The position numbers were made by a program, and so were the translations under genes. DNA of 28,570 bases, from the IMG/VR virus record IMGVR_UViG_3300034341_000592, positions 1 to 28,570 of that record; one strand, given 5' to 3'. Under the pieces are notes generated by a model. That model was not told the origin of the DNA. It searched no databases and worked only from the letters and a program-made list of their open reading frames with translations. Positions 2,163-18,600 of the stretch are shown here, one piece after another (the first letter of the stretch is position 1; the number at the start of each line of letters is the position of its first letter). Origin of the DNA: a virus. Its lineage: Duplodnaviria > Caudoviricetes.

Positions 2163-5100
2163 TTATTTATTTTCCTCTAAGTAATTTAATAATCTTTTGC
2201 CTTTATTTTCTGGTTTTGATTTCCAATTAGCATAAGCGTTTATTTCTTCTTGGCTCATTTCTTGTATGGCATCTATTTCTTTTTGTCTTTTAGCAGCAGA
2301 TTGTTCTTTTCTTTTACGAGTAGCCTCTATAGCTCTTGTTTCTTTAGCGGTAGTATTAATTAGCTCGTGCTCTTCAATTTCAGCACCAACTTCCCATGAT
2401 TTCCACCCAAGCGCCATTGCTATCCTTTGCATATCTGAATTACGCGAATCAAGCGCTTCTGTAACTGCGTCAATTTCCGTTACAGCCCTGTCGAGTGGCA
2501 GGTTTATTGTGGCTGATGCTAAGTTGCCCAACACTTGATATGCCGGACTTAATTGAAACTTGCCATCTATCATTACACCAAAACCTCTTGCTTCAAGCAC
2601 ATCTCTTTCGTAATCCATAGCTTCTAATGAATTATAAAACTTGCGGGCCTTAGAGCCGATTGGGGGTGATATGTTTATTGCTTGTAATAGTATTTTAGCA
2701 TTGTCTTTTTGGAACGGATCTTTTCCCTGCTGACGCATATATTCAATAAGCACATTTTTAATTGTAGATGCAACTGCGCCATATAATCCTGAACCTCTAA
2801 GTGTTGTATCAAGCATACTGTTCAAAACATTTTGAACTTTTTGCTCTTCTTTTCTTTCAATCTTATCAAGCTCTTCAGCGGTTAAGTTTTCTTCGTCTTC
2901 ATCATCAAATCCTGGTAACAATGTAAACAATCCATTTTGTAATGTAGAGAAGATTAAGTTTTGAATAGCCGTATAATATGTAATACGACTTAAATACGTC
3001 ATATCACTTTGAAATTGGTTCTTACCTTTAATGCGTCTTCTATTAATTAAATCTTGAAAATCACGCTTTTGAAAACGAGTAATCTGCATTGGGGTATTTT
3101 GGAAAGCTAATATAAGTCTACCCATAGTACCTGCTTGCTGTTTTGAAATAAGCATTGGATCACCAGACTGTTGTGTTTCGTCTGATATATTTGAAAAATC
3201 TTCCCATGCTTTTGCCTCCGCTTCAGCATCATCAAATCCTTTTTTCTTATATGTATTAATCCTGTTTCTGTAGAATGCCGCCCCACCTGTTGCAATTGCA
3301 AAGCTATCTGCTATTTTAGTAGGTGTAAAACCTATTTTAAGTAGGTAGCTAATCATTGCTAAAGGTTTATTATTAGCGTTTTTAGCTGCTGCTGCAATCT
3401 CTGCTTCTTGCACATCGCTTTTTAATCCGCCTCTACGTTCTTTGAGCTTTGGCGAATTAAATATTGTAGTCCAATCTTTTATATATTGTGGAAAGTTTGC
3501 AAATGCAGTCGCTGCTCTTAGCGGGTGATTATCCGTATAATTTAAAAAGTTTACAGTAGATAGCAGCTGTAAGGTAGCAGATCGTCTATTAAAGAACATA
3601 ATAGCTCCTACAGAATTATTTACCCAGTTATTCCATTTATTTACAATAGAGTCGCCTCCAGAAGGTTTGTTACTACCTGTTCGCATTCTATAAAGAATAT
3701 CCTCAAAAGATTGCCTTGCGCTTTTGCCAAGTGTAGCCTCTATTTTATTAAAATTATCCGGTGAAAATATTTGTTCAGTATTTTCAATAAACTCTTTTAA
3801 ATAAAGCTTCCTGTTTACGTTTAATGCAATATCAGTAAGGTCAGACAAAGTTGTTTGAGCATCCCAATATTCAGTAGGATCTGACCAACTATCTTGCTTG
3901 CTAATTGCTAGTAAACCATTTGCGTACGCTTGGAGTATCGGTGTCTTGTAAATATACTCAACCGCTTTCTTTTGATCTGCTTCTGTAAGCTCAGGAATTG
4001 TTTTATCAGACTGTGTCCATAAATATATACGCAAAGCTTGATCCACGCTTATATCCATTCCAGGTACTTTTTGATTCATACTTTGAATGCCTGCCGCTTT
4101 TAAATCTGGTCTGAATATTTTACGCAAAGCTTTAAAGTCATTCATTATAGCTTGCTTAGCTTTTTCCATAGCAGCTATGCCTCTAGTATATGGCGCAACT
4201 ACGTGGTCTTTGAAAAATTCTTTATCAGCTTCGCCTTGTCTACCGCTACCAAGAAGTGAGTAATACAACCCTCTTAAATCTTCAGCGGATGGAGGCAAGA
4301 ATAATTTGAACATGCCTTTGTTAGCGCCTATTCTACGAGCTACAACTCCAGATAATTTTTTACGCGCTGCAATACCCGAAGCACGTTCTATCATTTTGTT
4401 AAACTCAGAATTAAGACTTACTTTTCTTTTTTTACTTCTAGCTATCATACCCGGCACCTTGGCTAGTACCTTTTTCTTTTGAGCGTCTGTAAGCGCGCCA
4501 AATGAATCGGTTGTTCCAGCCATAACTGCATCATTCATAGCTTGCGCAGGAAACATTTGTCTAGCTATAACTTGTCGCATGTCAAATGTATCTTTTTTAT
4601 CTAATTCGCCTTTTGTAAGTGATATTAAATAATTTTGTTGCTGTTCATATTGTTTCTTAAGTACATCAGAAACAGGTTTACCTTTTGAAGCCGCTATAGT
4701 ACCTTTGTTTATAGACTCAAATAAATTCTTCATTGAGCTTGTGCTATACACACTGCTTGTTGAAGTTTTTGCTAAGTCAGAAGCTGTCTGAGTTGTAAGC
4801 GAAGGATATGCTACTCTTGAAACACTAACAGTGCCATCGCTTCTAAAGTTAGGCTTAAATTTAACATTAATATCAACTTCACCTAAAAACGGCGGTAAGT
4901 TAAGCCCCATTGGATTTGAATCTAAAGAAAAATTACCTATATCTGTAAAACCTATATAGTGCGTATTTTTTTCTTTATACAATTGAGAAACAATATCAGT
5001 TGGTAATGTTAATTTAGTAGTCGCATTTTTTTGAAAGCCAAGTCTCTGTAAAGCATAATATACATTTTTAGGCATAATCCAGTTTTTGCCATCAAATGTT

Positions 5101-8100
5101 ATTTTATCAGAGTACTTACCATTTGTTAGCTGATCTATATACTTTTTTAAACCCTTGTTATTTTTTTCAGCTTCTAATATTTCATCTTTATATTCTTGTT
5201 TAACATTTCTAGAAATACCGGGTGAGTCGGTACTCCAATTAGAAATGTACATTTGACTTAGCCTAGCGTTTTTACCTTTTTTAATTTCCCAATTTATAGG
5301 AACTCCTTCATATTCAAAAATTACATCTGGAGATGATGGGTCGCCTACAGGTTCTGTTTGTGTTATTTTTAAATTGTCAACTATTTTTTGCAATTTATTA
5401 AATCCATCAATTGCTTTTTGTTCTGCAACATACCATCCGCCTTCGTCAATTTCTTCCATTACATCCAAAAATGGGCCTATTTCAGTATCATATAATGTTT
5501 GATATTCTTTTGGAGAAAGAAGACTTTTAATTTTTTGTAATGCCTCAGCTCTTTCAGTGTTTGTAGCCCTAGTCATTGCCCCAATTGCAGACTCGACAGC
5601 CATACCTGCGCTTCTAGCAATCAAACCGCGTTCTGTTTGTTCTATAATTTCATTTCTAAAATTATCTGAAAGTACAGCGCCGCGTAAATCTTGATTTTGT
5701 TCAAAAGCTTTTGAAATATCAGATTCTGCATTCAGCATTTCTTCTCTGAATATTTGCCCACCTAATCTACTTGCTAGCTCTTGTGATAATGATTCTTTTC
5801 TACCTCGTATTGGTGTACCATCTTCAGTTGTAACAAAGTCTGCAAAAGCATTATCGCTTATTTTTGCCGGCTTAACTTTCCTTACAATTTCATTGCCTGA
5901 TGTTTGTCCTCTTTCAAGTGTTTTTTCACGATCAATTTTTTGCCCTACCCACTCAGGATAAGGTATAAAATTAGGTTTAAATTCTTTTACTTTAACAGTT
6001 TTACCGCCAACATTTATTTCAATAGTTTTACCGGTATATTTACCACCAACAGACTTTTCAATAGCGATTGGTATGCCACCTTTAACAGTTTTACCGCTAT
6101 CTTTACCCATTAACCATGTAGCGGAAGCGTTGTTAATTATGTCGGCTTTGTTATCAATGGTCCACTTGCGTAATTTTAAATCTGCTTTGCCACCAATTTG
6201 TTTTTTAATATCAATGTCAATAGACTTAGCCGATGACTGTATGACTTCTTTTACAATTGGTACAGTGTTTACGTTTTTAGAAACAGCAGTATTAATTTTA
6301 TTCTTAAGCGTTCTAACTATACCTAATACTTTATCTTTAGCTTTACTTGTTGTAGCTGGTAAAAGCGCGCTAGATGTTGTTAAATTAAACGTAGAGGCAG
6401 CCTCAGCCTCCTCTTCCGCTTCTCTAGCTTCTCTTTCTTCTATAGAAATCTCATCAGCTGCTATTTCAGCAACAGAGCCTAACTCGCCGGCTTGAATGTC
6501 AAGCGATTTTGCAGTATCAGTAACTGTTTCTTTAAACTTTTTAGCTTGATCAAGAACCGCTGCTCTTACAATACCTTTTGGACCTAATAAATATCCAAAT
6601 ACAGTATTTTTATCAGGGTCGTAATTTTTAATTAACCTAATACCAATATTTTCTTTAATAGCATCAACATCTAGTCTATCCGTAGGTATACCTGCTGCTT
6701 TTGCTGCATTAATTATGCTACCATCAAGCGCATTTGTATTTGTGACTGTAAAGTAAGCATTCGTGCTGTCCATATCCTCCGGAAACACATCGCTTAATTC
6801 TTTTTTAGTTGAAGCCGCGCGCTTAAGTCTTGTTTGCTCTTGTTTAGTTGGCAATACAATAGCCGCGTCTTTTACTTGTTTTACAAGCTCACTACCTTTT
6901 GCTTTTTTAATGTCTGTCGTTGTTAAGCTGCCATCTGCAATCTTTTTACCAATACCAACAACAAAGTTAAACATATCAGTCTCACCTGCAAAATTAAAGT
7001 CATACTCATTGCCAAATTTCTTTTGAACTATTGTTCCAAACAATCCTGACATTGCTTTCTTTGCGTTGTTATTTCTAAAGTCCACGTCACCTGCGGCAAC
7101 ACGCTCTAAAAATCTTGCAACAATTTCAACGCCATTACCCTCTTCTTTTAAAAGTTGCTTATGTATTGAAGGGCTTATTACTTTGGTTGTTTCTAATAAC
7201 TGCCTTCCTATTTCATCAAAAGCCGCTGGGTCTGTACCTAAAATATCCCAAAATACTTGATGGCCAACTTCATGTGTTCGAATAAACTTACGTTGATTTC
7301 TAACTTGATTTTCTACAACTGCATATGTTGTTTTCTTACCTTCAGGGCTTACATATGCTGCGCCGTCGTCACCATCTTTTAAGTTTTGAATTAACGTTTT
7401 CTTATCAGGGTCAGAAATAGTTTTGCTATTTTGTATAAAAGCAGTTGCTTCTTTAACAGTATTAAATGATTTAAAGTTAGCACCTAACCTTTTGTTAGCC
7501 TTACTGTTTTCAGCTACAATCTGATCTTGAAAATATAATTCTAAAGCTTTTGATTGTATTTTTTCTTCTGAAGCAGCGGTTTTATCGGCTGATAATAGTG
7601 CTTGCGCGTCGTTTAGGTATTGATTATATTGTGCTTCATTAGAGCCTTTCAAAAGTAAAAACTCAGTAAACTTATTTACTTTAGCACTGTCTTTTAAAGC
7701 CCCTTCTTTTGAAGATTGCAAATAATCTGTTTCAGCTTGCAACTGCTGTAGTCTTGCTGCTTTTTGTGATTCTGTAAGCGACCCATCCGATAGTATAGCT
7801 TTTGCCTCTAATTGTATTTTTGCTTGTCTATTTGTAATATCAATTACATATTGCCCAGCTCTTGCTGTAATATGCTCATTAATATTTTTTTCCTGCAATT
7901 GTATTTCATTTGCAGCATCAACACTTAATTTTTTAATCTGCTCTTCTATTCTAGCTTTTTCAGCTTCATTTTTAGCGCCATTATATTCTAAACTAAGTCC
8001 ATTTATTTCTGCTTGTATTTCGCGTACTTTTTTAAGTTTTGAATAGTCGGAATACCTAGACAGATGCAGTCCACGCATAAATGGTATACCTGAAAATAAA

Positions 8101-12806: not shown

Positions 12807-14327
12807 TTAATATGATGATTCTACATAATTAGATGATACTGCAAATAATTCTTTAAAGCCACCTACATCAGTAACATCATCTGTTTTAATTGTAACTGTT
12901 GCAAAAAATCCTCTAATACCGGATATTTGTCTACCGTGAAGGATTTCACCAATTCTAATTGTAGTGTTGTTTTTTAATCTTGCAACATATTTGTTTTCTT
13001 TCCTGTCAAAGCCAGCATAGTATTTTATAAACGCAGGATCATATGTGCCCAATACAGAGTAATAGTCTGCTTTCTCTACAACTTGTCCATCTGCTGGGTT
13101 TATTACATACTCACCGCCATAATAACTTTTTACAGATGTAGTTGAATCATTCGATGTTGCATACACATTATTAACTGAATCTTGCCCTGTTTCGCTTGAA
13201 ATAAATCCTAAATAACTTACATTGTTATTATCAACTACAGTATCTATTTCCCATCCATTACTTCCTTCATAGCCTACTGTTTGAAAGTTTTTAACAGAGC
13301 TTACATTTGGATTAAACACAAATGTTATAGAAGCACCTGTTTGTTCACCATAAAAAGTGCCGCGGGCATTTGTTGAAGCTGTATCATAATGACGGAATAA
13401 TTCACCATCTTTCATGGTGTAGAAGTCATTGCGAAGGCTAAACATGTGGTCTGGCTTATATGTAAAAAAGCTTACCCAACCCTTAGGTCCCTCATCAAAA
13501 GCTAAAGTATCATACATTTCGTTTGAAGAAGAAACGTTTTTTTGTGTAGAAACAACATACTGTTTATTATGTATATCGTAGCCGCCTAAAATAATACCAG
13601 GCCCCTCAGGTGAGTCTATATCGTTAAATTTATCTCTAAAATAATCTCGCATTCCGTATTTTGAAATTTCCTCAATACCATTCATTGAAAGTCTCAAAAC
13701 AGAATTTCTGCGTTTATCAGTAAAATATTTTTGATAACCATAAACAGCAAAGCTTTCTGGGTTTTTGCTAATACCAAATTCACCTGCATATGGAACTATT
13801 TGGCCAACTACAACTCTGGAAGATGTAACAGTACCCCCGCCTTCAGCCGAATATATAGCGTCTTTATCTATAAGAGCTCTGCTAACTTTATTTTCCTGAA
13901 ATATAACCAAGTTAGTATCTTCAGCATATAGTTTTTGTATACTTCCTTTAGCGGGGTCAACTGATTTAGTTATATCCTCACCAACTGAAAATACATTAGT
14001 ATCATTAATACCTGTTCTAGAATTAAATATACCTGAATAAATTAATGCATTGCCTCTTACAGATCCGTTTGGTTCATCTTCAACTAAATAAGCTTTTACC
14101 CCAAAATCCACTGTAGTATTATTATACCCACCTCGTATTCTGGACTCTTCAATTGCCCATGTGCTATCCGATACATTAGTAGGCGCTATTTGCGGGTAGC
14201 CCCCTAAATCTTCAGGTATACCAAAAGAACCATTAGCGCCACCTCTGCCGTTGCTAGCATTTCCAATTTGGCCTACTCTTTTCAAAAGAAAGGTGTTAAA
14301 GTATTTAACTTCTATGATTGCACCCAT
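12807..14327 (-). CDS. Tail stabilisation/nozzle protein, C-terminal part (P22 gp10/crAss muzzle-like beta-propeller)
   Basis: GSIQKL...LVIFQENKV, GEFGISKNPESFA.YG...YFTD, VLRLS.NGIEEIS.YGM.DYF and GWVSF are repeats of the kind seen in the C-terminal half of crAss-like stabilisation proteins. Confidence 0.7.
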   Translation of the reverse strand: MGAIIEVKYFNTFLLKRVGQIGNASNGRGGANGSFGIPEDLGGYPQIAPTNVSDSTWAIEESRIRGGYNNTTVDFGVKAYLVEDEPNGSVRGNALIYSGIFNSRTGINDTNVFSVGEDITKSVDPAKGSIQKLYAEDTNLVIFQENKVSRALIDKDAIYSAEGGGTVTSSRVVVGQIVPYAGEFGISKNPESFAVYGYQKYFTDKRRNSVLRLSMNGIEEISKYGMRDYFRDKFNDIDSPEGPGIILGGYDIHNKQYVVSTQKNVSSSNEMYDTLAFDEGPKGWVSFFTYKPDHMFSLRNDFYTMKDGELFRHYDTASTNARGTFYGEQTGASITFVFNPNVSSVKNFQTVGYEGSNGWEIDTVVDNNNVSYLGFISSETGQDSVNNVYATSNDSTTSVKSYYGGEYVINPADGQVVEKADYYSVLGTYDPAFIKYYAGFDRKENKYVARLKNNTTIRIGEILHGRQISGIRGFFATVTIKTDDVTDVGGFKELFAVSSNYVESSY

Positions 14328-14353
14328 TTATTATCACTTATTTATATAAATTA

Positions 14354-14833
14354 TTACACAGTTCCGTCATATATTAGTATTGGCTCTTCTGTATAATTTC
14401 TTTTTTGTTTTGTTTCATTAAGATACGTAGGGCTAACCCAAAAAAGCCCATCTTTTCCCCATTCGCCTTTAAACCTTCTATGGACGCCTGACGCTATTTT
14501 ATATCGTTCCATGCTAACACCAAATTTTCTATCCTCTAAGCTAAGCATGCCGTGTATAGATTGGTGCGAACTGTGTACTTTTTTTCGGTAATGTATATCA
14601 ATAACAATAGGGTTTATAAGTATAGCTTTAGTTAAAGATTCTTTTAAATGGGGCAAAACTTTATTTCCTACAACTGCAAAATCAATATCTTTTGAATCCC
14701 ATTTATTTTCTATAATTCCTCCAACAAGATAAAGCTTATATCCTTCCCAATTAATTTTTTTTACTTCGTTTATTAATTTTTGAGTATGCTCATCATGCAG
14801 CCTAAGCTTATAATTACCTAAACGATTTTTCAT
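14354..14833 (-). CDS. Minimal nucleotidyltransferase-like protein (Pol-beta superfamily)
   Basis: LYLVGG-x9-DID matches hG[GS]x9-13DhD, with a later VIDI as the candidate third Asp. ATGA overlap with the upstream tail gene. Confidence 0.65.
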   Translation of the reverse strand: MKNRLGNYKLRLHDEHTQKLINEVKKINWEGYKLYLVGGIIENKWDSKDIDFAVVGNKVLPHLKESLTKAILINPIVIDIHYRKKVHSSHQSIHGMLSLEDRKFGVSMERYKIASGVHRRFKGEWGKDGLFWVSPTYLNETKQKRNYTEEPILIYDGTV

Positions 14834-17800
14834 ACAATAACAAAACTGTATACATCTACACTTGATGAAGGCACCGTATTTCCATAACTGCTTGCAAAAA
14901 GAGCATTGTCATATTCGCACTGCTCCAAAGCTGTAAACGCTGCACTTCCTGTTGCCCCTCTAGCCCAATCATTACTCCCGCAAGTAGTTGTTCCACTGAT
15001 TCTAACACTAGCATTTGTTCTATCAATTTCTATAGCATTTGAGGAGTCTGCTGTAAGGGTAAGATCTTCCCATGTTCCATTATACAAATAATACCCATCT
15101 GTTGGAGCGCCCTCGTCAAACCATAATTCTACAAATTCCACATCAATTTCGTCATAGTTATTTGGCGCGTATATAGCCTCACGCCTTCTAACAGTGGATA
15201 CAACATTTCCAAAACTAACAGTGATAACCAAAGTATCTTGCGCACCACCGGCATCCCGCAGTCTAACAACTATTTCATAATCATCTACAGGAATACCTAT
15301 TTGAGATTCATCATTTATGACTTGACAAGTAGATAGCGAATTTGTATTTGATGTAATTAGCGAAAAATGAGATACAGAATTACCAGAACTTCCAGTTTGA
15401 GATGTAATTGTCCAAGTAAGATCTTTTCCAGAATGATTGCTGTTTCCACCGTTTTTGCCCGTGATAGTTAGGATAGTTGATGTAGACCTGCCTATTGTAC
15501 CAAGATCACCATCAGGCGAGCTCGTACCATTTGATGCAAATATTTCTGGCGTAATATTACCAAGTAAACCCTCTTTTGTTATTACAGTTGTTGTAGAATT
15601 ACTGCCGTCTGTTAACACCGCTTGAAAAGTAAAATCGAAGTTTCTTTTTCCTGCGGTAGCGCCATAATATATATTATTAAAAAAAGCAGATGTTGTTTGA
15701 ACATTGTAATTAAAAGCGCCATCATCTACTAAATTAAAATATGTTGTTACATTTTGTGGGGTTCCTTCTCTATCAAAAACACTTGAAAGAGTTAAAGAAG
15801 TTATTGTATTAGTATCAATATCTGCACCAAAATTATCAACTAACCTAAAATCTCCCGCAAGTATGTCTGCTCCGCTTGCAATATCTTCATCAAATGGCGA
15901 TGTATTAAAGCTGCTAAAAAATGCAACAGCACCACTTGAGGAATTTGCGTAAGCTGAGTTTAAATCTGAAACAAGACCAGCTGATGTAGTTTCCCAAAAT
16001 ATATCTAATTTTGACTCAACGGGTTCTGTTTCAAAAACAGCTAAATTTTCAATGGTTGCAAAAGGAGTTGCGGCATTAGCAGGGGTTCCAAACTGTAAGT
16101 CACTATTAAAACTTGTAGTAATCTCGCCAACTATTGGATTAGCAATATTATTATAAAATAAAAATATATTATCCCCACTTGTAATTGGAGGTGCTGAATT
16201 GTCATAATTAAACAAATCAAATAAGTCCTGTATATTATTTACAGTAAATGAATTTTTTGCCGGGTAAAATTGTTTATTACCAGTTACAGAAAATGAATAG
16301 CTAGGTATGCCGGTTGTATCTTCATTGTTAACACGGCCATATAAACGAACTGAACTTCTAAATGATTTATCCTGTGGACCAACTTCTGCTAAATCTCTAG
16401 GTACTTTATTTATATTATCATTTATAAGCGATACATAAGATGCTTCTCTTCCGTCTGTTGCATTAATAGCAGCATCACCTTTTAAAGCTCCAGGAGTATA
16501 AACATTGTAATACTCTTGTTCGGTTTGCTTTACAACTATTTTATAACTGTACCAACCTAACGGATTATAAGCAGGATCGTTAACATCCCCGTTATAAATA
16601 CCTGGTTCTAATGTACTACTTGAAAAATTATTATTTACTCCGGAAGTTATTAATTGATTAAATAAAACTTTTATTGATTGACCCCTCCACTCGTCAGGTG
16701 CAATTTCTTCCGTTATATATGGAGCATACACAGTTGACCCTAGATATGTTTCTGTACCAACTGTAATGGAGTTGGTACTATTAGAAAGTATAACTCCAGA
16801 TTGTCTTCCGTATCTATCTGATAAAACAAATCCAATTTGATATTGTCTGTTTGTTTTCAATGAGCTACTGGGGTATTCTACTAAGCTTGTTGATGTTTCA
16901 ACGTCGCCTTGAGCTGAAAACGAAAGAACAGTATTATTTGGTACAGAAATAGCGGTATCTACCACCAATGTAGAAGGCGGTGTAAAAGATGTTACTATAA
17001 CCGTTCCAGAAATGCCATTACCTGTAACAACTGCCCCCGGGTAAGGTTCGAATCCAGCAACAGGGCCTGATATATTATCAATATTTAATGTAGTTGCATC
17101 TACGTAGTCCCCGTCTACATCTGCAACCCCTGTTTTTAAATTAAAATTAGATTTTTCGGTGATTGCTACATTATAGTTTAAAGCCGGTGGTGGAGTGTGT
17201 TTTGTTTGGAAATTACCATATATTATTCTATTGCTAGCGACTTCTTGAGATAGAGCTCTAACTGGTATTTTATCGTATACTCTTATTAAGTCTTTTTCCG
17301 GTAAGGTTTTATATGGCTTTTTATTTGTGTAATTATATGTGTAGTATTCATCAGACCCAGTACTGCTTATTACAGAAATAGGTATTGTATCTATAACATT
17401 TACCGCTAACCCATCTGATTCTTTTGAAATAATATCAATTTCTTTTATAAGAAAATCTGATTCTATTGAGCTTGCGGCACCTGGAAGAGGTATTATTAAT
17501 TCAATATTATTAACTTTGTTTTCCATAAAGGCAACAATACTTGATTCAAACGCCTCTTGCTGATCTTCGTCAAAAAAGTAGCCGTCCTGCTTCGGAATAA
17601 AGCATGACTGCGTAAATGGTGCAAATATTGAATATTCACCATCATCAAATTTGAATCTATAGCTAAATCTTATAAATTTATTTTCTATAAATTTAGAATC
17701 ACCTAAATATGTAAGATCATAATATGGATTAGGAACGAATACTACTTTGTCAGTTGTTTGAAATGAAGCGCTACCTGATATTGTTAAAACGCCACTAGAC

Positions 17801-18600
17801 GTAACATATGACTGAACCTCTAGCCCCAAGTCTGTTAATAAACCATTTTCACTAAGCTTAGCAACACTTAATCCGTTTGTGGGCTCAGAATAAGCGCCAG
17901 GAAAAACTAACTCGTTTATTGTACCAGAGTTTCCACTCCAACTTACAATACCAGCCATTCCGCCATCTGGAAGAAATACACTTGAAACATCTTTCATTGT
18001 AGTTTCATATTGAATAGCAGATGAAGAATCAGTGTTTAACTTGTATAGCTCCATTGGTAAATACGGATTATATTTTGCAACAGATAGTTGATCTTCTGTT
18101 GTATAATATGATCCGCCTGCTGCTGATTCAATATTTATTTTTCTAGGCTGGTTTCTGTTATCTGTAAAAAATAATAATTCTTCTAAAATATTAACACCTG
18201 TTATTGGATATAGTTTAGAAAAATTTAAAAACGGACCTGTTACAAGTAGCGTAGCAGTGGCGTTGTTTATATCATATTGATATATATAATGATTTGAACC
18301 GGTGCCGGGGCCGGGACCATTGGTATACGCCTCTGAGCTATTGTCTGTTAAAAAAACAAATATTAATCCTCTTGCTTCATCTGTTAAAAAACCAATAGAA
18401 CTTAAATCTGACACGCCGCTTGGGGCAAAATTTACAACAGATATATTACCTAATATGTTTTCTAAAGCACCTTCGTCCGGGCCTTCTGATCTGCTAACTT
18501 GTGCATTGATAGCATGTCTGTATTCTCCAGACGGCAATAACCGCGCATCTAGGTCCTTGTTCATCTTCGATTTTATGAAGGCGTTTTTAGCTTCAGGCAT
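14830..18600 (-). CDS. Tail stabilisation/nozzle protein, N-terminal part, with inserted and C-terminal beta-rich domains
   Basis: The N-terminus KMNKDLDARLLPSGEYRHAIN, plus LLFFTDNRNQPRKIN, FSYRFKFDDGEYS, NRIIYGNF and SLKTNRQYQIGFVLSDRYGRQS, are characteristic of crAss-like stabilisation proteins. Confidence 0.7.
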   Translation of the reverse strand: MPEAKNAFIKSKMNKDLDARLLPSGEYRHAINAQVSRSEGPDEGALENILGNISVVNFAPSGVSDLSSIGFLTDEARGLIFVFLTDNSSEAYTNGPGPGTGSNHYIYQYDINNATATLLVTGPFLNFSKLYPITGVNILEELLFFTDNRNQPRKINIESAAGGSYYTTEDQLSVAKYNPYLPMELYKLNTDSSSAIQYETTMKDVSSVFLPDGGMAGIVSWSGNSGTINELVFPGAYSEPTNGLSVAKLSENGLLTDLGLEVQSYVTSSGVLTISGSASFQTTDKVVFVPNPYYDLTYLGDSKFIENKFIRFSYRFKFDDGEYSIFAPFTQSCFIPKQDGYFFDEDQQEAFESSIVAFMENKVNNIELIIPLPGAASSIESDFLIKEIDIISKESDGLAVNVIDTIPISVISSTGSDEYYTYNYTNKKPYKTLPEKDLIRVYDKIPVRALSQEVASNRIIYGNFQTKHTPPPALNYNVAITEKSNFNLKTGVADVDGDYVDATTLNIDNISGPVAGFEPYPGAVVTGNGISGTVIVTSFTPPSTLVVDTAISVPNNTVLSFSAQGDVETSTSLVEYPSSSLKTNRQYQIGFVLSDRYGRQSGVILSNSTNSITVGTETYLGSTVYAPYITEEIAPDEWRGQSIKVLFNQLITSGVNNNFSSSTLEPGIYNGDVNDPAYNPLGWYSYKIVVKQTEQEYYNVYTPGALKGDAAINATDGREASYVSLINDNINKVPRDLAEVGPQDKSFRSSVRLYGRVNNEDTTGIPSYSFSVTGNKQFYPAKNSFTVNNIQDLFDLFNYDNSAPPITSGDNIFLFYNNIANPIVGEITTSFNSDLQFGTPANAATPFATIENLAVFETEPVESKLDIFWETTSAGLVSDLNSAYANSSSGAVAFFSSFNTSPFDEDIASGADILAGDFRLVDNFGADIDTNTITSLTLSSVFDREGTPQNVTTYFNLVDDGAFNYNVQTTSAFFNNIYYGATAGKRNFDFTFQAVLTDGSNSTTTVITKEGLLGNITPEIFASNGTSSPDGDLGTIGRSTSTILTITGKNGGNSNHSGKDLTWTITSQTGSSGNSVSHFSLITSNTNSLSTCQVINDESQIGIPVDDYEIVVRLRDAGGAQDTLVITVSFGNVVSTVRRREAIYAPNNYDEIDVEFVELWFDEGAPTDGYYLYNGTWEDLTLTADSSNAIEIDRTNASVRISGTTTCGSNDWARGATGSAAFTALEQCEYDNALFASSYGNTVPSSSVDVYSFVIV

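Follow-up and report, generated by a model that had tools for sequence, protein, structure and literature searches.

A diverged sigma70 domain 2 within a giant, probably ejected protein of uncultured marine phages that have a distinct early promoter-like motif

Phages are known to begin transcription either with the host holoenzyme or with a packaged polymerase. The phage sigmas T4 gp55 and SPO1 gp28 are small proteins that use the host core polymerase on phage promoters. The crAss-like phages have a giant zincin-bearing virion RNA polymerase, which is injected for early transcription. The N4 virion RNA polymerase is, in the available parts of the papers that describe it, likewise a giant late protein with a zincin domain that is injected and transcribes from early phage-specific promoters (PMC5512222, PMC4496689). 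The accessible text on jumbo-phage sigmas describes them as free-standing (PMC7824862). In the accessible literature, which for the most part did not include subscription journals, we found no description of a virion protein with a sigma domain.

The locus described here resembles each of these systems in part. Like the virion RNA polymerases of N4 and the crAss-like phages, it encodes a giant late protein with a zincin motif, which by analogy may be injected; in contrast to them, no polymerase domain or catalytic motif was found, and the phage module would need the host core. With the polyvalent proteins, as the accessible portion of Iyer et al. 2017 (PMC5512222) presents them, it shares large size, a multidomain layout, a HExxH metallopeptidase (here a motif only) and a variable effector region; the word “sigma” does not occur in the main text of that paper as far as it was available. 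As for phage-encoded sigmas, we propose that the host core is used on phage promoters, and the family also has a free-standing sigma gene. However, those phage sigmas are made after infection for middle or late genes, whereas the embedded domain belongs to a protein of the late structural block and would act before phage gene expression. The domain itself compares best with sigma70 domain 2 (PF04542; nearest solved structures ECF sigma H 5zx2, sigma-28 6pmj, SigR 1h3l and the SigE N-terminal domain 8b3z). The order of the helices, the fold and the region 2.2-2.4 pattern with equivalents of F419, Y430 and R436 are the same. On the other hand, the phage domain lies inside a 2.7-kaa protein, scores below all curated cut-offs and lacks the WW, and no sigma-3 or sigma-4 was found after it; an unrelated conserved domain comes next.

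The window (the whole stretch of DNA that was analysed) is a 28.6-kb virus record, 45% complete. It holds mostly a virion gene block on the minus strand, with terminase, P22-like portal, structural and crAss-muzzle-like genes. Family profile searches placed the giant ORF (Table 1) after the terminase, portal, capsid-type and crAss-muzzle-like genes, and its gene position and homology suggest an ejection (cargo) protein that is packaged and ejected. The annotated relatives of the portal (87 records, the best at 42-51%) infect Flavobacteriaceae, and one relative of the phage encodes a type IX secretion tail domain. Both observations support the Flavobacteriaceae-type host named in an earlier, sequence-only reading of this DNA, and the host is therefore likely a flavobacterium. 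The sigma-like stretch of the giant ORF is covered in frame by contigs from three other DNA runs; contigs from RNA runs span part of the giant gene, which cannot show transcription. The crAss muzzle-like gene occurs as two parts, of 1,256 and 506 aa (window 12807-18600), separated by a 159-aa nucleotidyltransferase-like gene (PF01909, E 0.004). As the early region lies outside the window, all early-gene data come from relatives.

Table 1. Features of the giant protein gene in the window, and loci of the free-standing sigma gene in relatives
Feature	Position	Strand	Basis
Giant protein, 2,730 aa	2163..10355	-	ORF; last large gene of virion block
Zincin-type HExxH (H1028 E1029 H1032), candidate self-processing protease	7260..7274	-	alignment of homologs
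Sigma70 domain-2-like helical bundle, ~aa 1195-1278	6522..6773	-	profile, HHalign, model
SLD-containing linker (aa 1279-1302), candidate for a region 3.2 finger	6450..6521	-	partly conserved letters
Domain X, conserved, basic/glycine-rich (aa 1333-1582)	5610..6359	-	many invariant G/R/K; mostly pLDDT >90
PD-x12-ExK motif, possible restriction-type nuclease, in variable middle of giant protein	5280..5330	-	by eye; without profile match
Conserved C-terminal helical region, defines family	2166..4505	-	invariant columns in alignment
Free-standing sigma gene	L282:6600-7364		
Free-standing sigma gene	L287:7361-8107		
Free-standing sigma gene	L289:13943-14695		
Free-standing sigma gene	L278:1403-2152		
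Free-standing sigma gene	L292:19023-19787		

We found 77 homologs of the giant protein, of 1.5-3.5 kaa, and collected 79 loci. At 50% identity and E up to 0.001 the family comprises 518 clusters (the best 150 of 518 were inspected), and an estimated ~2,500 stored stretches, chance matches included, have the core pattern. Cultured phages gave no match to aa 1-1985 of the giant protein or to the free sigma; this is a family of abundant, uncultured, marine phages. The HExxH motif is invariant across 31 aligned homologs, and in 98 of 103 further long homologs it lies no more than 450 aa upstream of the sigma-like segment (median 183 aa). The C-terminal region was found at 39-53% identity in 16 further genomes. 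Downstream of the sigma-like segment, 169 of 252 homologs have a domain of the domain X type and 74 a second, weakly related type. Domain X showed no sigma-4 likeness when compared by HHalign with a sigma profile that includes region 4 (0.15%; 0.15-0.23% for the two types), and no clear fold match was obtained when it was searched as part of a longer model. We infer that domain X is a candidate reader of upstream promoter elements. In most aligned homologs the middle of the giant protein carries a HAD-like DFDDT motif, which the version in the window lacks; the large phage protein P0021 has a zeta-toxin-like kinase there. In two loci the giant gene is broken, within the sigma-like segment in L047 (G018) and after 1,810 aa in L005 (G007), through an assembly error or a real break.

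The residues in which the sequence-only reading had seen sigma70 region 2.2-2.4 lie at window 6656-6477 on the minus strand (aa 1234-1293 of the giant ORF), and their likeness to that region goes beyond chance in both the ranking by a phage-only profile and HHalign. The domain begins ~40 residues upstream of the limits first given for it, and the quoted segment is its C-terminal half. An iterated profile built solely from phage segments was tested on 175 bacterial ORFs, of which 32 are sigma70. Of these sigmas, 22 outscored every one of the 143 non-sigma ORFs from those loci (best E 6.6e-5), with the best stretches of the sigma hits in region 2, and with a deeper profile 15 sigmas ranked before the first decoy. 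Among giant proteins, the iterated profile picked up the segment in 133 of 152, and it matched 0 reversed sequences; among the 19 negatives, the 17 that were viewed had a like segment by eye or were not judged. A check of the HHpred type, run as HHalign, matched RpoD 400-445 in the sigma profile (58%, E 1e-4). When 58 windows along the giant protein were scanned in this way, only three exceeded 20%, all of them holding aa 1216-1262, and the next reached 1.9%. The segment is thus a diverged sigma70 domain 2, its homology demonstrated at modest scores.

Searches against curated resources gave less. The window's own sequence had no sigma match in Pfam, PHROG or NCBIfam, and weak matches of 41 family members to PF04542 (2) and TIGR02937 (4) all stayed below the curated cut-offs. 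A PDB sequence search reached sigma 8b3z only at E 0.075, below an unrelated chain, and returned nothing with a longer region; an Atlas search listed a Sigma70_r2 cluster at rank 22 (0.87), below the threshold.

In the alignment, Y1245 corresponds to RpoD F419, Y1255 to Y430, R1264 to R436, and D1269 to R441 (FliA D81). RpoD F419 and Y430 have a role in the -11A pocket. Their equivalents are the best-kept residues of the embedded domain, aromatic in 100% and 99% of 60 non-redundant rows, in a domain with a mean column identity of 18%. The version from G006 aligns ungapped to FliA 68-84, with R74, I75, L80, D81 and R84 identical. The WW motif, reported missing before, is indeed absent, with no counterpart of W433/W434 in the 60 rows. 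The letters of the SLD motif, a candidate for region 3.2, are present in the window, and D1286 is found in 72% of the 60 rows, the S in 27% and the L in 10%; this linker has a pLDDT <50 in the second model and lies outside the HHalign alignment.

An AlphaFold model of the embedded domain had a pLDDT of 76. When this model was searched against 48,161 chains, the top three rows and nine of the first 12 were sigma-2 structures or sigma complexes (Z 5.2-6.2; best sigma-2 match Z 6.2, rmsd 3.2 over 81 residues), and a second, longer model again matched sigma-2 (Z 6.7 and 6.3). Z values below 8 are common among helical bundles, and Foldseek against the PDB returned no match for either model. Three lines of comparison, by sequence ranking, by profile alignment and by fold, all single out sigma-2 and agree on its register. 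A complex prediction of the embedded domain with Bacteroidota beta-prime clamp helices scored 0.17 against a mark of 0.32 and is no evidence either way.

We considered whether the giant protein is itself an RNA polymerase. This was rejected, as it matched no RNA polymerase family, and the DxDxD-type motif, which the sequence-only reading had not seen in it, is missing from a 95%-identical relative and is not conserved in the giant ORFs of the family. A DxDGD-type catalytic motif was found in none of the plausible ORFs of at least 150 aa in five near-complete relatives. Pfam searches of 78 of their ORFs (most of those of at least 150 aa in G021 and G020, and the non-structural ones of G026) revealed no RNA polymerase, where a very divergent one could be missed. 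The embedded domain is neither a complete sigma factor, as it has no region 4, nor a virion RNA polymerase. The earlier suggestion that a sigma module takes the place of the phage's own polymerase held in part: the homology to sigma domain 2 was supported, and no phage RNA polymerase was detected; its use on the host enzyme stays a proposal. G021 and G020, which have direct terminal repeats, encode a primase-helicase, ERF, ribonucleotide reductase and GroEL, and their scanned ORFs of at least 150 aa gave no match to a DNA polymerase family.

The early region was read in five near-complete relatives. A motif, TACAAA-N3-4-AATACGA-N9-GATAATA, is repeated there on one strand upstream of small early genes, with 46 sites in six genomes compared to 0.0 expected from shuffles. 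Of 32 family records, 22 carry the motif, including all 10 near-complete ones, and the reversed pattern was found 0 times; the closest relative of the window has seven sites in its early region. As the converse test, 42 motif-bearing records drawn from 4 of 64 parts of the viral contigs were searched. Of these, 15 had a sigma-like match (8 of the 14 near-complete ones), and all 14 near-complete records encode the giant protein. Among 49 control records with the wrong spacing, taken from 53 loci, there were three weak sigma-like matches, and none in the nine near-complete ones. The three (E 4e-4 to 4e-3) lack the family C-terminal region, two of them are 4,250-aa proteins of another kind, and they were taken as chance. 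The co-occurrence of motif and protein amounts to one clade, and the free sigma has the same distribution.

The host promoter has, beside its sigma-A box, an upstream TTTG element. For Bacteroidota the box is given as TAnnTTTG in the accessible part of PMC9723704. No full host-type promoter was found in the six early regions, where the -7 box is about as frequent as in shuffles. The cultured relatives Elemovirus and Panino have neither domain nor motif, and their early regions hold 2 and 3 full host-type matches compared to 0.3 and 0.6 expected; a short stretch of a third outgroup had neither the motif nor a host-type match. From its position, strand and -10-like hexamer, the early motif, which is unlike the Bacteroidota consensus, is probably a promoter. 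The co-occurrence of this non-host motif with the protein family lends indirect support to the redirection of host polymerase.

Our preferred reading, which we consider somewhat more probable than all others together, is that the sigma-like module in the giant late protein is injected with the phage DNA and directs the host core polymerase to the phage early promoters. The giant protein would be packaged and ejected with the DNA, and the zincin would free the sigma module. The sigma-2 domain would then dock on the beta-prime clamp helices of the host core and open or read the GATAAT -10 element and the -13 base, while domain X, in place of sigma-4, might read the two TACRA elements, 11 bp or one helical turn apart. 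The early transcripts would yield the free sigma, which would in turn serve replication and late genes. In its fullest form, with a virion-delivered, protease-released module, a new DNA-binding domain, a phage-specific tripartite promoter and a one-residue code at the D81 position for the -13 base (D to C, E to G, A to T), the proposal is more tentative, and we lean slightly against its being right in every part. If true, the host holoenzyme and the packaged polymerase would be joined by a third means of starting an infection, an injected sigma module, and this one would be used by a large marine family. The defined promoter and the residue-base prediction make it testable in vitro without phage culture, and the system could give orthogonal promoters for Bacteroidota.

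The base before GATAAT (-13) is genome-specific (permutation p 0.0002) and could reveal its reader. In a first set of 11-13 genomes, it correlated with the distance between free sigmas (r 0.48; 0.42 without near-duplicates) and not with that between whole embedded domains (r ~0). Over 25 genomes r was 0.17 for the free sigma, 0.13 for ERF, 0.155 for the HTH gene and 0.08 for the embedded domain. As the ERF and HTH neighbors track the base as well, linkage explains the free-sigma signal. The whole-domain Mantel test was therefore rejected as a pointer to the free sigma, and it does not name the reader.

A single column, that of FliA D81, seemed by eye to track the -13 base among the first genomes. 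In the second set, the base was C at 15 of 23 sites in genomes with D in this column (G071 4/4, G073 9/9, G057 2/10) compared to 2 of 90 sites in 16 other genomes. Seven genomes with E had G at 32 of 32 sites, in a set that is G-rich anyway (28/58 in the rest). Overall, two of seven D genomes show no preference for C. Counting was done by hand and excluded terminal duplicates and single hits outside the region (14 sites in G038, G040, G042, G045 and G057); G040 was removed for its weak alignment, and the near-duplicates G007 and G017 were left out. Across 34 genomes the column came first of 53 for covariation with the -13 base (z 6.2). However, the linked ERF and HTH genes have columns with z up to 8.7, so this score does not beat lineage; only the position of the column in helix 2.4 is suggestive. 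We take FliA D81 to read the extended -10, a role for which no paper was found. As the window has D1269 at this position, its version is predicted to prefer C at -13.

One alternative is that leaky host transcription comes first and the free sigma then reads the early motif, in which case the embedded domain would serve another stage or none. This ~250-aa sigma70 lies between the HTH gene and ERF and is complete, with regions 2 and 4. It is ~60% identical across the family, far better conserved than the embedded domain, and was found in all 10 near-complete genomes of one group and in 12 of 14 of another; the near-invariance of the early motif beside a very divergent embedded domain may be set next to this. 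Its distance tracks the -13 base, but so do its neighbors, about equally. Moreover, the sites of the early motif precede its gene, and no full host-type promoter was found within 1.5 kb upstream of it in any of five genomes. Another promoter-like motif, in which a TATA-like run follows GTRAY, was seen by eye upstream of window 21797 and, in the genomes G007, G020, G021, G026 and G013, upstream of ERF and a number of late genes. It is a candidate target of the free sigma, and it would be left without a reader if the free sigma read the early motif. We regard this alternative as unlikely.

Another possibility is that the embedded domain acts as a decoy: it would sit on the clamp helices of the host core, displace the host sigma and shut off host transcription without reading DNA. 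Domain 2 alone is present and the WW is lost, as a decoy might allow, and versions appear to be swapped between close relatives, as expected of a conflict module. In the closest relative (L458, G128:C16) the terminase-capsid block is 84% identical to the window and the best C-terminal segment 92%, the C-terminal half outside the sigma-like version is 66% similar, and the sigma-like segment is only 24% identical. This contrast points to exchange of the sigma-like module. However, a few injected copies could hardly titrate the host polymerase, the DNA-facing aromatics are the best kept of all residues, and something else would still have to read the non-host early motif. The decoy is improbable in our view.

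A little less probable again is that a host alternative sigma or activator reads the motif and that the embedded domain is a relic or is reused elsewhere. Flavobacteria do have several ECF sigmas with unassigned motifs, according to the accessible part of PMC9723704. Yet the other contigs of the 2.5-Mb Bacteroidetes bin that holds the closest relative lack the motif, except for two near-copies, although the bin may not be that of the host, and the domain is kept across the family, as the profile counts show. Finally, convergence of a small helical bundle on the sigma-2 fold, which the sub-cut-off curated profiles, the Z of 6-7 and the blank Foldseek search might suggest, is very improbable, as sequence ranking, profile alignment and fold agree on sigma-2 and its register and the ungapped G006 alignment has five residues identical to FliA.

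In the genomes G007, G013, G020, G021 and G026, a partly palindromic sequence, TGACAA..AGCC/TAGGCT, recurs before the HTH gene and where the early and late regions meet; it is possibly an operator or origin for the HTH protein.
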